A stretch of DNA of 4,227 nucleotides from the IMG/VR virus record IMGVR_UViG_2554235189_000008; one strand, written 5' to 3'. The stretch's first letter is position 1, and every line of letters begins with the position of its first letter. The notes under the pieces were generated by a model that was not told where the DNA came from, made no database searches, and saw nothing but the letters and a program-made list of their open reading frames with translations. The position numbers were made by a program, and so were the translations under genes. This document shows positions 1-4,156 of this stretch, piece by piece. The stretch comes from a virus. Lineage: Duplodnaviria > Heunggongvirae > Uroviricota > Caudoviricetes.

Positions 1-19
1 GGATTCCCGGGGCGGTTCA
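1..19 (-). mobile_element. Terminal inverted repeat (left end) of an IS3-family insertion sequence, IS629/IS1203-like; the element body lies outside the window to the left
   Basis: Reverse complement of 1-19 is TGAACCGCCCCGGGAATCC, an 18/20 inverted match to 4168-4187. It starts with TG as IS3-family termini do, and the lambda-like O reading frame breaks exactly at 19/20. The IS629 name is from memory. Confidence 0.6.
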
Positions 20-223
20 GTCCATTGGTTTATTCCACCCATAGGTTTTACGCAGAATGGCAAGCAGCACTTTAAACTGTCGCTTGGTCAGATCTGCGCC
101 TGAATAAGCCTCAATCAGCATATTTGATAGTCTGGCGTAACCATCATCGAGATCTGCCACATTACGCTCCTGTTCGGCAAAGTTACCTCTGCCGAAGTTG
201 AGTATTTTTGCTGTATTTGTCAT
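17..223 (-). pseudogene. O: Replication initiator O, N-terminal 68 codons only, truncated by the IS insertion
   Basis: Translation MTNTAKILNFGRGNFAEQERNVADLDDGYARLSNMLIEAYSGADLTKRQFKVLLAILRKTYGWNKPMD matches my memory of the lambda O N-terminus almost residue for residue. The in-frame stop (revcomp of 17-19) is supplied by the IS terminus TGA. No ori or O C-terminal domain is present. Confidence 0.8.
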
Positions 224-233: not shown

Positions 234-309
234 GTGGATTGATCCAGTAATTCCCTCAGAATTCCATCTGGATTTGTTCAGAACGCTCGGTTGCCGCCGG
301 GCGTTTTTT
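234..309 (+). ncRNA. oop: oop-like antisense RNA (antisense to the 3' end of cII)
   Basis: Plus-strand sequence GATCCAGTAAT...CCATCTGGATTTGTTCAGAACGCTCGGTTGCCGCCGGGCGTTTTTTATT is close to the lambda oop/t0 region as I recall it. It ends in a GC-rich hairpin plus T6 and lies in the cII-O junction overlapping the cII 3' end. Confidence 0.55.
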
Positions 310-552
310 ATTGGTGATTCCATCAAGCGCATACTTAAAAGCCCTGCTAATCGGACTGATGTCTGATGCCATTCCGAAAGCACACAGGACCGAAGCAATA
401 AACCGCCAGTCCGTTCTGCTTATCTTCGATTCATGACAGCCAATCATCTTTGCCAGACCGCGCTGGGTAAGCGTTGACAGGTTGATGAGTAAATCAGTTT
501 CAGCGCGATCAATTTCTCGCTGTGATAGTTTGCTGTAACTTGTTTGTTCCAT
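256..552 (-). CDS. cII: cII-like transcriptional activator (mosaic: C-terminus matches lambda cII, N-terminal two-thirds diverged)
   Basis: 98-aa ORF. C-terminal ...TNKKRPAATERSEQIQMEF is identical to the lambda cII C-terminus as I recall it. Position between cro and O is syntenic with lambda. Confidence 0.85.
   Translation of the reverse strand: MEQTSYSKLSQREIDRAETDLLINLSTLTQRGLAKMIGCHESKISRTDWRFIASVLCAFGMASDISPISRAFKYALDGITNKKRPAATERSEQIQMEF
284..309 (+). terminator. Rho-independent terminator (oop terminator, lambda t0-like)
   Basis: Stem CGCTCGG (284-290) / CCGGGCG (297-303) with one G-U pair, loop TTGCCG, followed by TTTTTT (304-309). Confidence 0.7.
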
Positions 553-690: not shown

Positions 691-924
691 TTATGCAGCC
701 GATGCTCTACGCGATACGAACACTAGGTTTTCCTTTTTCACAGGTTTATAACCCGTGAAATTACGAGTAGCTTCTTCGATTGCATTCGCTTTATCAGGGG
801 AAGCTCTTCGAAATCCATATGCAATCTGGTCAAGATAGCCAACTGAAGTTTTCGCTAATGCGGCGAGTCGCTTCCATTCCTCACTAGAAGCCTCTTTTCG
901 CCAGCGTAGTAGTTCATTACTCAT
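691..924 (-). CDS. cro: Cro-like HTH repressor, divergent from cI
   Basis: 77-aa ORF transcribed divergently from cI across the operator region. SD GGAGG (revcomp of 931-935) lies 6 nt before the ATG. Probable HTH in ...TSVGYLDQIAYGFRRASPDKANAIEEAT... Confidence 0.75.
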   Translation of the reverse strand: MSNELLRWRKEASSEEWKRLAALAKTSVGYLDQIAYGFRRASPDKANAIEEATRNFTGYKPVKKENLVFVSRRASAA

Positions 925-1037: not shown

Positions 1038-1742
1038 ATGGAAAACAAAGATATTCGCAAATCGAATCTGGCGTTTTTGCTAGATGAGCATAAAAAAATC
1101 GCGGGTAACACTAATGCAAGCTTTGCCGATAAGCTTGGGGTTAGCCCTTCTCAACTCACGCAAGTCTCCGGTGAAAAAAGCACTCGAAACATAGGGGATA
1201 AACTAGCAAGAAAATTTGAAGCCGCGCTTGGGTTACCTAATGGGTGGCTTGATTTGGTACATGATGTAACACCAATTGCATCATGCTCAGATTCTTTAAC
1301 TTTTGTCGGTCAGGTAAGAAAAGGGTTAGTGCGCGTGGTTGGTGAGGCAATTCTTGGTGTTGATGGTGCCATCGAGATGACCGAAGAGCGCGATGGGTGG
1401 CTCAAAATTTATAGCGATGATCCAGATGCCTTTGGTCTTCGTGTGAAAGGAGACAGCATGTGGCCCAGAATAAAATCAGGAGAATATGTACTCATTGAGC
1501 CTAACACCAAAGTATTCCCGGGTGATGAGGTGTTTGTCAGAACCGTTGAAGGACACAACATGATTAAGGTTCTTGGCTATGACAGAGATGGAGAATACCA
1601 ATTTACAAGCATTAACCAGGATCACAGGCCTATAACGTTGCCTTATCATCAAGTAGCAAAGGTGGAGTATGTAGCTGGTATTCTGAAGCAATCTCGCCAT
1701 CTGGATGACATCGAGGCAAGGGAGTGGCTGAAAAGTTCGTGA
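1038..1742 (+). CDS. cI: CI-type prophage repressor, N-terminal HTH plus C-terminal S24 (LexA-like) autopeptidase domain
   Basis: 234-aa ORF. HTH-like segment ASFADKLGVSPSQLTQVSG, and the S24 catalytic-serine motif GDSMWP with a downstream Lys (MIKVL). Divergent from cro across the operators. Confidence 0.9.
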   Translation: MENKDIRKSNLAFLLDEHKKIAGNTNASFADKLGVSPSQLTQVSGEKSTRNIGDKLARKFEAALGLPNGWLDLVHDVTPIASCSDSLTFVGQVRKGLVRVVGEAILGVDGAIEMTEERDGWLKIYSDDPDAFGLRVKGDSMWPRIKSGEYVLIEPNTKVFPGDEVFVRTVEGHNMIKVLGYDRDGEYQFTSINQDHRPITLPYHQVAKVEYVAGILKQSRHLDDIEAREWLKSS

Positions 1743-1802
1743 CTTCATCGTCACATAGCTGGTAACCAGTGGCCAGAAGAAACGTTTGGGTGAGGAGGAT
1801 AG

Positions 1803-2144
1803 ATGGCGTTCACTGACCTTGAATATCAAGCGGTCAAAAAAGAAGTTCACCAATTCATTGAAAGCATAAGGCCGCCTGAACATATCCGCAATGAACTGGA
1901 TATTGTTTATAGCATCAATGACCAAACGATAGATATCGGCGAACAGCGCCCCGTGTGGCAGGGCAACCCAGGTGAAACAAACATCCTGCCATCAGCAAGA
2001 ATCAAGTACATACGTTCTCTGGATAGATGGAAAATCTATTGGATGCGGAAGGATATGAAATGGCATCAGTACAGTACTGAACTTTCGCTGACTGATGCGC
2101 TTGAGCTTGTGCGTGCTGACCCGGATTGCTGCTTCTTCGGATGA
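1803..2144 (+). CDS. Hypothetical protein (113 aa), first gene of the cI-downstream accessory cassette
   Basis: Strong SD GAGGAGG (1792-1798) 4 nt before ATG 1803. Co-directional with cI, 60-bp gap after the cI stop. Trp-rich C-terminal half and a terminal DPDCCFFG. I cannot assign a family. Confidence 0.75.
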   Translation: MAFTDLEYQAVKKEVHQFIESIRPPEHIRNELDIVYSINDQTIDIGEQRPVWQGNPGETNILPSARIKYIRSLDRWKIYWMRKDMKWHQYSTELSLTDALELVRADPDCCFFG

Positions 2145-2214
2145 GTGAAGAGACGTTTGGATGATGGATGATCGCAGAGATGCTCGTAGAGCATACAGCG
2201 ATGCAGGAGAATTT

Positions 2215-2649
2215 ATGGCACTTAATTTAGAAAGAATATCTTTTATAACCCCATTTGATAGCAGCGAAGAACCCAACCAACCGACGCTTAATTTTACATG
2301 CAATGAATTTCCTGCGCGGCTATCAATTGATTTCAGGGTTGGTATGATCGGGTTGAAACCAAATTCAAGATATAATTTGGGTATTATGGTAATCCCCGCG
2401 CACCTAATTATAAAAAAAGGTGAGGAAATTCAATTCCCTGACGGCTCTTCGGAATCAGTTTCACTTTTCATCGATACGAAAGATAGCCATTTTGAAACAG
2501 GGGTTGGCGGACAGGTAATAGTAACATTGAAAGAAATTAGGGTCCCAGCTAAAGGGCTGTATAGTGTTATAGGGATATTGCAAGATAATGAAGACCCTAA
2601 AAATGAACTTCATAAAAATGAATCATTTTTCACCGTAGAGCTATTATGA
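2215..2649 (+). CDS. Hypothetical protein (144 aa from ATG 2215; the longest ORF starts at 2161 and gives 162 aa), second gene of the accessory cassette
   Basis: ATG 2215 is preceded by AGGAG (2205-2209) at 5-nt spacing; ATG 2161 has no good SD. The stop TGA (2647-2649) overlaps the next gene's ATG (2646-2648). No recognisable motif. Confidence 0.7.
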   Translation: MALNLERISFITPFDSSEEPNQPTLNFTCNEFPARLSIDFRVGMIGLKPNSRYNLGIMVIPAHLIIKKGEEIQFPDGSSESVSLFIDTKDSHFETGVGGQVIVTLKEIRVPAKGLYSVIGILQDNEDPKNELHKNESFFTVELL

Positions 2650-3266
2650 GTGACGACAGTAATTTAAATAATCATGGAAAGCAAGACACCAACATATCTG
2701 AAAGCCGGAGGTTGAAGGTTGTTGGCGGTTCCGATTTTGAGGCTGAATTTGATAATTCTCCCACCAAGGTGCAAAATAATTACATAAAACCGCCACAAAC
2801 GGAGGAAGAAGTGGGAACGATCAGCAGAGAGGAACTTGATGCTCGCTTAGCTGCTAATAAAGCAGAGATGGAGTCTATTGCTTCTTCCATTAGGGCTGAC
2901 ATGGCTCTATCTCGTGAAAGCGTTAATGTCCAATTTGCATCACTTAATGCAGCCATAAGCTCTCTATCGTCCAAGATCGATGGAAAGATGGATAGCGCTG
3001 CTGGCGATATAAAAGCAATTAATGGGAGATTCGAAGGAATTCAAGGACAAATAACAGGGGTTAATACCGCAATTAGTGGTGTTCAGTCGGGTATTTCTAT
3101 ACGATTAGCCATTTTTAGTGTCATTATCGCTGTAATAGTTGCGATTCCCGGGCTGGTATCAGCTTTAAAGTCAGACCACGCACCTTTGCAACAGCCTTCC
3201 ACTTTGCAAGCGCCGCCACAAAATACCCAGCCAACAGACAACAAAAAAACCACTCCCCAGCATTAA
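2646..3266 (+). CDS. Hypothetical membrane-anchored protein (206 aa): N-terminal soluble region with predicted coiled-coil character, one C-terminal TM helix, Pro/Gln-rich tail
   Basis: Single hydrophobic stretch IRLAIFSVIIAVIVAIPGLVSAL (about residues 152-173, nt ~3100-3165). Preceding Ala/Ser/Ile-rich heptad-like sequence. ATGA start/stop overlap with the upstream gene. Confidence 0.75.
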   Translation: MSDDSNLNNHGKQDTNISESRRLKVVGGSDFEAEFDNSPTKVQNNYIKPPQTEEEVGTISREELDARLAANKAEMESIASSIRADMALSRESVNVQFASLNAAISSLSSKIDGKMDSAAGDIKAINGRFEGIQGQITGVNTAISGVQSGISIRLAIFSVIIAVIVAIPGLVSALKSDHAPLQQPSTLQAPPQNTQPTDNKKTTPQH

Positions 3267-3272
3267 CGCATT

Positions 3273-3300
3273 AACCCGGCCTCAGCGCCGGGTTTTCTTT
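3273..3300 (+). terminator. Rho-independent terminator ending the cI/accessory operon
   Basis: AACCCGGC (3273-3280), loop CTCAGC, GCCGGGTT (3287-3294), then TTTTCTTT through 3300. It starts 7 nt after the stop of the last cassette gene. Confidence 0.7.
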
Positions 3301-3404: not shown

Positions 3405-3530
3405 TTTATTTATCCTGTCGAATTCCTACAACAAAATAAAACACCATAAGAATCAATACGATATTTGAAAACCAAGAGAATTTATCATTTTGCTATTGCC
3501 ATTAATTTATCATTCCGATAAAGTTCACCC
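3405..3530 (+). promoter_or_regulatory. OL/PL-like region: TTTATC operator sites (3409-3414; 17-mers 3481-3497 and 3506-3522) and PL-like promoter (-35 TTGCCA 3496-3501, 17-nt spacer, -10 TAAAGT 3519-3524)
   Basis: Site 3506-3522 TTTATCATTCCGATAAA is a perfect inverted repeat of the half-site seen in OR and overlaps the -10. The same -10 hexamer TAAAGT is used by the PR candidate. Confidence 0.45.
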
Positions 3531-3759: not shown

Positions 3760-3772
3760 TCAGGAGGTCTAT

Positions 3773-4156
3773 ATGACACGCAGAACTCAGTTCAAAGGCA
3801 ATTCACATTCTCGTCGTCGTGAGCGTTTAAAGGCAAAGGCATTAGCTAACGGCGTGCTGGCCCGCGAAGAAGCAATAAGTTCAGAAGTATTACACCGCCC
3901 TACTCTAAGCAGAGCGCAGATTCAGGCTAAAGGTACTCACGAAACGCCTGAGCGCATAGAAGACGCTAAGCCAATTAAGTTCATGGCACAGGACGTGATC
4001 TGGCAGCAGAAAGAATACAGACGCAATCTGGAGCGAGCGGCCATTGTGTACGCGAATGAGTTTGGACATAAGCAACCAGAAACTGGTGTATGTCTTCCAA
4101 ACGTAGCCATTTACGCTGCAGGCTACCGGAAATCCAAACAACTGACAGCAAGATAA
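3773..4156 (+). CDS. N: N-like transcription antitermination protein (127 aa)
   Basis: N-terminal arginine-rich motif GNSHSRRRERLKAKALANG resembles the lambda N ARM (QTRRRERRAEKQAQW). Position downstream of OL/PL and a boxB hairpin. SD AGGAGG 5 nt before the ATG. From memory the sequence resembles N of H-19B/933W-type phages. Confidence 0.75.
   Translation: MTRRTQFKGNSHSRRRERLKAKALANGVLAREEAISSEVLHRPTLSRAQIQAKGTHETPERIEDAKPIKFMAQDVIWQQKEYRRNLERAAIVYANEFGHKQPETGVCLPNVAIYAAGYRKSKQLTAR

Follow-up and report, generated by a model that had tools for sequence, protein, structure and literature searches.

In lambda-like phages the interval between the cI repressor gene and the antiterminator gene N is a mosaic hot spot and a known site of RexAB, Stk, Hex and BstA (PMC8585504; PMC3564112). 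The stk gene of the Shiga-toxin phage 933W is reportedly co-transcribed with cI, and Hex of phage 434 is a small protein encoded at the same position that blocks RecA-stimulated cleavage of the repressor (PMC3564112). Here we analysed a 4,227-nt stretch of the viral record IMGVR_UViG_2554235189_000008 (the window, in whose coordinates positions are given), in which an open reading frame (ORF) at 1803-2144 encodes a 113-aa protein, ORF113, of the DUF3024 family. Its gene takes the same position downstream of the repressor as rexAB of lambda, stk of 933W, hex of 434 and bstA of BTP1, and like them would share the repressor's promoter. However, DUF3024 has no sequence or domain similarity to these systems; in size it falls far short of RexA and BstA, and it lacks both a membrane segment such as that of RexB and a kinase domain. 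L0084 of 933W belongs to the same family and lies in the same place, but is followed there by L0083-stk-L0081, whereas the cargo in the window is a pair of genes, ORF162 and ORF206.

The family itself is already known (as DUF3024, PHROG 3467, L0084, RefSeq annotations and PDC-S43), as is the cI-N interval as a hot spot. Our main finding, from the comparison of genomes, is that the DUF3024 gene is a self-contained single-gene moron module, made up of a Shine-Dalgarno sequence, the gene and a flanking linker, and separable from all its cargoes. To this separability we add three further modest points: a duplicated cI end brackets the gene, the Cys-Cys of ORF113 is incidental, and some distant homologues are integron cassettes. 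The account as a whole, covering identity, mobility and function, we hold to be on balance probable. The gene is of interest for its presence in 390 of 5,426 complete Escherichia coli genomes and because in 933W-type Shiga-toxin prophages it immediately follows the repressor gene.

Independence from the downstream genes

The original prediction, made from the sequence alone, was that this ORF could be either an independent moron or the regulatory or sensor part of a cassette that includes ORF162 and ORF206. Genome comparison speaks for the former. Across the same complete E. coli genomes the ORF162/ORF206 pair occurs in 51 and the contiguous trio in just 18, at 98.5-100% identity. DUF3024 does not always accompany the pair, which is found without it in 33 of the 51 genomes, and only 18 of the 390 genomes with DUF3024 carry the trio. 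Moreover, the pair lies directly after a lambda-type cI in L164 (L numbers denote sampled loci), where the ATG of ORF162 overlaps the cI stop as ATGA, and the immunity regions of HK244 and HK542 likewise carry the pair directly behind cI. Because DUF3024 and the pair regularly occur apart, membership in a three-gene cassette is contradicted. Nor did these genomes show the obligate co-occurrence expected of a Rex-like sensor and membrane effector module with ORF162/ORF206 (18 versus 51 and 390).

That DUF3024 might nevertheless be a regulatory or sensor subunit acting with ORF162 and ORF206 is suggested by the shared strand, the tight spacing (16 nt to ORF162, with ORF162 and ORF206 overlapping by 4 nt), the single terminator downstream of all three genes and the 18 genomes in which the trio is preserved. 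Set against the separate occurrences, the pair directly behind cI in L164, HK244 and HK542, and a DUF3024-ORF162 junction that is a recombination linker (see below), we consider this extremely improbable.

Judged by these distributions, ORF162 and ORF206 form a separate two-gene cargo module, which would have no functional tie to DUF3024. The middle of ORF206 is coiled-coil-like and its C-terminal part contains a hydrophobic helix (LAIFSVIIAVIVAIPGLVSAL), and the layout of the pair resembles that of a soluble plus membrane two-gene exclusion system such as RexAB. The pair had no match in PADLOC, and an identification of ORF162 as Hex was rejected. The practical value of separating these units is that it prevents over-interpretation of the three genes behind cI as one system.

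Repressors and cargoes in phage loci

Eighty IMG/VR phage loci (L084-L163) were picked by DUF3024. Wherever the upstream region could be typed, DUF3024 lies directly after a recognisable repressor gene. The repressors found upstream of DUF3024 are of at least six types with 19-53% mutual identity, two of them (from Yersinia and Kluyvera) are without an S24 domain, and nearly identical DUF3024 alleles stand behind different repressors. Downstream, the cargo is the L0083-stk-L0081 block in 29 loci, ORF162/ORF206 in 13 and a ParA-like ATPase in 4; further cargo ORFs of 177, 173, 285, 246 and 351 aa are unrelated. In a Yersinia enterocolitica prophage a 137-aa repressor is followed by DUF3024, an ATPase and a methylase. 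The cargo there (L173, 4599-7427) comprises a HEC-04-like ABC ATPase (PADLOC, 1.7e-36) and a type II C5 cytosine methylase, and is a defence-type pair inside the repressor operon. In Kluyvera a Rac-type helix-turn-helix (HTH) repressor precedes DUF3024 and an MqsA-like protein, and in Morganella phage IME1369_01 nothing but a homologue of 33% identity stands between cI and N.

The stk cargo, too, occurs without DUF3024, since E. coli genomes contain the stk block in 225 cases and the block contiguous with DUF3024 in 194. Between an Erwinia prophage and 933W, DUF3024 is 59% identical and L0083, Stk and L0081 are 86%, 77% and 70% identical, respectively; DUF3024 and the stk block differ in history.

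Not all copies are intact. In a Sakai-type Stx2 prophage (L161, 5940-6310) DUF3024 is a pseudogene, in which two single nucleotides have been lost, each shifting the frame, and a Trp codon has become a stop; it has ~82% nucleotide identity to the ORF113 gene, and the 173-aa cargo ORF behind it stays intact. The E. coli DUF3024 records include a class of 80-90% identity (164 records), to which the pseudogene L161, one of its copies examined, belongs, and a class of at least 95% identity (228 records), which is intact.

In Rahnella and Erwinia prophages (L170, 3089-3568; L174, 3071-3316) DUF3024 is found just downstream of one or two genes for DinI, a RecA modulator. These copies lie in a moron cluster by the tail genes, and the Erwinia copy is then followed by the full L0083-Stk-L0081 block.

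Direct repeats from the cI terminus

The DUF3024 gene is bracketed by an 18-21-nt direct repeat (CCAGAAGAAACGTTTGGGTGA at 1773-1793 and AGTGAAGAGACGTTTGGATGA at 2144-2164), whose copies lie 371 nt apart and match at 16 of 18 core positions. Two linker matches were found in the window against 0.00 expected from 200 shuffles. Its sequence is that of the 3′ terminus of lambda-type cI genes (CAGTGGCCTGAAGAGACGTTTGGnTGA, encoding QWPEETFG and the stop), and is coding in L164 and several DUF3024 loci. In the second copy the ATGA at 2161-2164 holds the start of ORF162, as in the native lambda-type cI/ORF162 junction.

The gene had been described as tightly placed behind cI, 60 bp after the stop, and the distance is exact (1743-1802); however, the spacer is not a designed junction but a fossil left by two earlier cI genes, whose 3′ ends make it up. 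Positions ~1746-1766 match the terminus of a different cI type (catcg(t)cacatagctggtaa), whilst 1767-1793 match the lambda-type end (CAGTGGCCAGAAGAAACGTTTGGGTGA, again QWPEETFG and stop), and the present cI stops 51 nt before this relic lambda-type stop. Beyond the TGA of cI (1740-1742) the frame stays open up to 1793 (...KSS, stop, LHRHIAGNQWPEETFG, stop). This in-frame fossil of a cI C-terminus is probably a recombination scar, and the product of TGA read-through would have a lambda-type C-terminus.

The same repeat flanks the DUF3024 gene in 933W and many IMG/VR loci, and it is kept on one or both sides of DUF3024 homologues with saturated synonymous sites, with 0-3 mismatches in 18. A second sample of 118 IMG/VR loci was picked by the linker alone. 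There the linker still codes for the terminus of a cI-like ORF in 75 loci and is a relic in 43, DUF3024 comes next in 9, and other tandem linker pairs occur at spacings of 87, 125, 192 and 213 nt. Tandem linkers (GAAGAGACGTTTGGGTGA) with no DUF3024 between them, as in L216, L263, L265 and L268 (87 nt) and L256, L262, L280 and L292 (125 nt), suggest that the same site has been scarred by recombination more than once or holds very small inserts.

From this distribution we infer that the cI terminus serves the cI-N hot spot as a general joint for recombination, of which DUF3024 is one user. Homologous recombination at the repeat would add or remove the DUF3024 module and exchange the cargo downstream, which would explain how one gene comes to lie behind many repressors and before many cargoes. 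Such a joint would also explain the first place of DUF3024 after the repressor without any functional reason. Linker or boundary sequences, and the modular evolution of lambdoid phages, are reportedly the subject of work by Botstein in 1980, Juhala in 2000 and Clark in 2001. Common to both are short conserved stretches that mark the borders of modules and at which genes are reshuffled by homologous recombination; what differs is that here the duplicated end of a coding sequence brackets a single gene in a cassette-like manner. The cI-end repeat thereby offers a concrete, testable mechanism for the shuffling of accessory genes in this hot spot.

The gene, its expression and the protein family

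The ORF is certainly a genuine, intact and selectively constrained gene, as attested by a full-length DUF3024 match, 2,903 homologous clusters and a ratio of nonsynonymous to synonymous substitution rates (dN/dS) of 0.08-0.16 against relatives of 63-88% identity, indicating purifying selection. Its Shine-Dalgarno sequence had been called the best in the window. GAGGAGG lies at 1792-1798, 4 nt from the ATG, but it is not uniquely the best, as the AGGAGG at 1793 ties with that at 3762 in front of gene N, the one other occurrence in the window. The absence of a terminator between cI and the ORF was borne out: the plus strand has no terminator-like site from 1742 to 3273, the earliest being the hairpin after ORF206, and the RNA of the 60-nt spacer has neither unusual structure (z = 0.30) nor a terminator.

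The gene thus has the layout of an accessory gene of a PRM operon, being on the cI strand and downstream of cI, with no terminator between and with its own ribosome-binding site. In 933W, L0084 (98% identical to ORF113) lies between cI and stk, and in cells infected with phage Phi24B a common change is seen for cI, the DUF3024 gene, the one after it and stk (log2 fold change -1.2 to -1.4; PMC10789677). The missing terminator, the shared strand, the 933W stk arrangement and the co-regulation in Phi24B make co-transcription of the DUF3024 gene with cI plausible, and the protein is probably made in every lysogen.

Profile searches placed ORF113 over its full length in DUF3024, a catalogued but uncharacterised family. 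The Pfam model (PF11225) matched with an E-value of 2.4e-31 and 108.7 bits against a gathering cut-off of 24.9 bits, aligning residues 4-113 to positions 2-112 of 112. PHROG 3467 matched at 4.5e-67, and the PADLOC hidden Markov model (HMM) for PDC-S43 (PDLC05018) at 7.2e-42, with residues 1-113 on model positions 1-115. Annotated prophage genes are 98-100% identical to ORF113. A profile search returned 1,322 representatives at 50% identity, nearly all of them stand-alone proteins of ~115 aa among the best 150, and a second search gave 2,903 homologous clusters at 90% identity, with 120 of 120 among those listed being single-domain. The longer representatives include one putative fusion to an XRE-HTH and one to DUF6933, too small a number to support an argument. 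The former, P0055 (254 aa), joins an XRE-type HTH at residues ~50-105 to a C-terminal DUF3024 and may be a true regulator or a gene-calling artefact.

Residue conservation was computed on 118 family representatives at 50% identity. The Trp-rich segment noted in the original prediction (WKIYWMRKDMKWHQY) is present and proves to be the part of the family under the strongest conservation (W76 97%, W80 87%, R82 81%, W87 100%, Y90 88%). ORF113 has all of the family-wide residues, namely P24, R29, E47, R49, P50, W76, W80, R82, W87, Y90, D106 and the C-terminal C-F-[FWY]-G. The terminal Cys-Cys, to which attention had also been drawn, does occur in ORF113 (...DPDCCFFG) but is no feature of the family. 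The family C-terminus reads x-C-F-[FWY]-G, in which the second Cys is kept in 82% of the 118 and the preceding residue is mostly G or A; a CC end is found in about 12% of members, and the Morganella phage homologue ends in HRFFG, without Cys. On this alignment the Cys-Cys of ORF113 is incidental.

The protein has a mass of 13.5 kDa, an isoelectric point of 5.3 and a grand average of hydropathy of -0.57, and is soluble without a transmembrane segment. Structure prediction with AlphaFold2 (pLDDT 87.9, pTM 0.78) gave a helix at residues 5-22, a short helix, a five-stranded antiparallel sheet and a helix at 96-105. The predicted fold is a generic alpha+beta sandwich with no recognisable active site or enzymatic motif. 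Foldseek searches with the model against PDB and BFVD gave no significant match, and sequence and profile searches of PDB gave none either, hence there is no solved relative there. Many of the fold resemblances are to proteins that act by binding other proteins. The likeness to a PsiB- or CapZ-like alpha+beta sandwich is one of fold-resemblance scores only, with no sequence signal and nothing significant in Foldseek. A phmmer match to the kinase inhibitor AvrPto (E = 0.07) disappeared with the family profile and was treated as chance.

Homologues outside phages

Beyond phages we sampled 80 loci from species-representative genomes of Pseudomonadota, Desulfobacterota, Bacillota, Verrucomicrobiota, Spirochaetota, Nitrospirota and others. 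Their neighbours amount to 402 ORFs in 369 clusters. No neighbour was conserved across the 80 loci, the recurrent families being just PIN, GNAT and YoeB (2-3 loci each), and an S24 or LexA neighbour was found in 0/80.

Certain of these homologues, with 41-47% identity to ORF113, are integron cassettes. In L008 (2743-3322) attC sites lie on both sides of the DUF3024 homologue, and in L066 (3581-4532) one lies directly after the gene; the sites at DUF3024 homologues are Xanthomonas-type and Treponema-type. In L004 (4797-10962) the integron integrase gene, IntI, is immediately upstream of the homologue and seven attC sites are downstream, whilst Stutzerimonas has integron-like arrays with a KAP NTPase and AbiC near DUF3024. 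A relaxed scan found an attC-like hairpin directly downstream in 2 of 78 loci against 1 of 234 shuffled controls, and IntI lies within 6 kb in 3 of the 80 loci. By these counts the integron is a minority context, and as an explanation for the whole family it holds only in part. No attC-like site was found in the 80 phage loci with the module (L084-L163), a scan to which the window itself did not belong. Distant homologues such as L008 and L066 therefore qualify as integron cassettes, whereas the flanks of ORF113 are direct repeats of cI origin.

As a small gene that stands alone in integron arrays and beside toxin-antitoxin genes, DUF3024 fits the pattern of an orphan immunity gene, and in phages it precedes potentially toxic cargo such as Stk or an ATPase-nuclease-like protein. 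It could accordingly be supposed that DUF3024 is an immunity- or antitoxin-like neutraliser of an incoming interbacterial toxin or of toxic cargo effectors. We judge this quite improbable: with 369 clusters among 402 neighbours there is no consistently adjacent cognate toxin gene, each cargo type checked (the ORF162/ORF206 pair and the stk block) is also found without DUF3024, and DUF3024 is also found without cargo.

Possible function in lysogens

We tentatively propose that DUF3024 acts alone, as a non-enzymatic binder made in lysogens that protects against other phages; modelling and analogy make this possible, although we would stop short of calling it probable. The gene would be transcribed with the repressor in lysogens, the protein would by itself bind another protein, and this binding would shield the lysogen from other phages. 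The binder role is suggested by the lack of an enzymatic motif together with an alpha+beta sandwich typical of binding, inhibitor or immunity proteins, and the anti-phage role by the company that DUF3024 keeps (the cI-N interval, PDC-S43, defence cargo and defence genes among some of its neighbours). The Stk cargo matches PD-T4-6 and mad6. PDC-S43 owes its nomination to copies lying inside BREX, DISARM or type I restriction-modification systems and is among 145 untested candidates (Payne et al., bioRxiv 10.1101/2024.01.29.577857). ORF113 resembles the candidate in a whole-protein HMM match and in being a single-gene unit. However, the nomination came from BREX, DISARM and restriction-modification loci, whereas ORF113 is in a prophage repressor operon.

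Several points weigh against a protective binder. The literature searched for DUF3024 and PDC-S43 shows no phenotype, and 113 aa without an effector domain would make an unusual complete defence system. Outside phages the neighbours are mostly ordinary genes, with few toxin-antitoxin or Abi genes. DUF3024 seems dispensable in Sakai-type Stx2 prophages, given the frameshifted pseudogene there (L161, of the class of 164 records). Moreover, the fixed place after the repressor could stem from the linker mechanism alone, and co-transcription with cI is argued for this prophage from its gene layout and from related phages.

The position of the gene might instead point to a stabiliser of lysogeny that damps induction via RecA-dependent repressor inactivation or the SOS response, in the manner of 434 Hex, plasmid PsiB and DinI. 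DUF3024 is the first gene after the repressor in the typed phage loci down to 33% identity, 434 Hex is a precedent for a small protein at this position, the copies in Rahnella and Erwinia prophages follow closely on genes for DinI, and one representative is the XRE-HTH fusion. We regard such a role, although it is the main rival to the protective binder, as unlikely all the same. With at least six unrelated repressor types, two of them without the S24 autocleavage domain, and near-identical alleles behind different ones, a repressor-specific binder is disfavoured, and outside phages no S24 or LexA gene adjoins the homologues. The fold similarity to PsiB is weak, the gene has decayed in Sakai-type Stx2 prophages, and there is no sequence relation to Hex, homology to which (L177:3127-3528) was rejected at an hhalign probability of 0.04 and an E-value of 0.86.

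A broader proposition joins a function in lysogens to the repeat. DUF3024 would be a new single-protein lysogen factor, either an anti-phage protein acting solely through the binding of a conserved target in phage or host, or a factor that damps prophage induction in general, and would have spread via a dedicated cassette-exchange site derived from the duplicated cI 3′ end. We consider this doubtful. Were it true, the cI terminus of lambda-like phages would serve defence genes in the way that an integron's attachment site does, and DUF3024, intact in 933W-type Shiga-toxin prophages, could affect the induction of Shiga-toxin phages or superinfection in enterohaemorrhagic E. coli.

Organisation of the immunity region

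The window is a lambda-like immunity region in opposite orientation to the lambda map (Table 1). The lysogenic (PRM-type) operon begins with cI, and the divergent cro-like ORF and cII complete the lambdoid layout. The terminator-like hairpin closes the cI-DUF3024-ORF162-ORF206 transcription unit and is the counterpart of tM of 933W, which has the same relative position in the 933W annotation. Positions 1743-3300 match, at 100% identity, a prophage in E. coli O55:H7 USDA5905, in which RefSeq labels ORF113 'DUF3024 domain-containing protein' and the following two genes hypothetical.

Table 1. Features of the 4,227-nt window.
Feature	Position	Strand	Remarks
5′ part of replication gene O	17-223	-	
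cII	256-552	-	Part of lambdoid layout
cro-like ORF	691-924	-	Divergent from cI; part of lambdoid layout
cI-type repressor	1038-1742	+	HTH and S24 autocleavage domain; Pfam Peptidase_S24 3.8e-16; PHROG 4 'transcriptional repressor'
Spacer between cI and DUF3024 gene	1743-1802	+	60 nt; 3′-end fossils of two earlier cI genes
Linker copy 1, CCAGAAGAAACGTTTGGGTGA	1773-1793	+	Left direct repeat; its TGA overlaps the Shine-Dalgarno sequence
Shine-Dalgarno sequence GAGGAGG	1792-1798	+	4 nt before ATG of DUF3024 gene
DUF3024 gene (ORF113)	1803-2144	+	113 aa; PF11225, PHROG 3467, PDC-S43
Linker copy 2, AGTGAAGAGACGTTTGGATGA	2144-2164	+	Right direct repeat; ATGA at 2161-2164
ORF162	2161-2649	+	PHROG 5893, function not assigned there
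ORF206	2646-3266	+	PHROG 5820, function not assigned there
Intrinsic terminator-like hairpin	3273-3294, with T-run to 3302	+	3′ of ORF206
Antiterminator N	3773-4156	+	

Lastly, motifs containing TTTATCA are repeated at 955-1015, flanking cro and cI (aatttatcatattgcgtatttatcc), and at 3480-3525, upstream of N (aatttatcattttgctattgccattaatttatcattcc); they probably represent the operators OR and OL for this type of immunity, and a promoter-like site located at 3496-3524 would correspond to pL.

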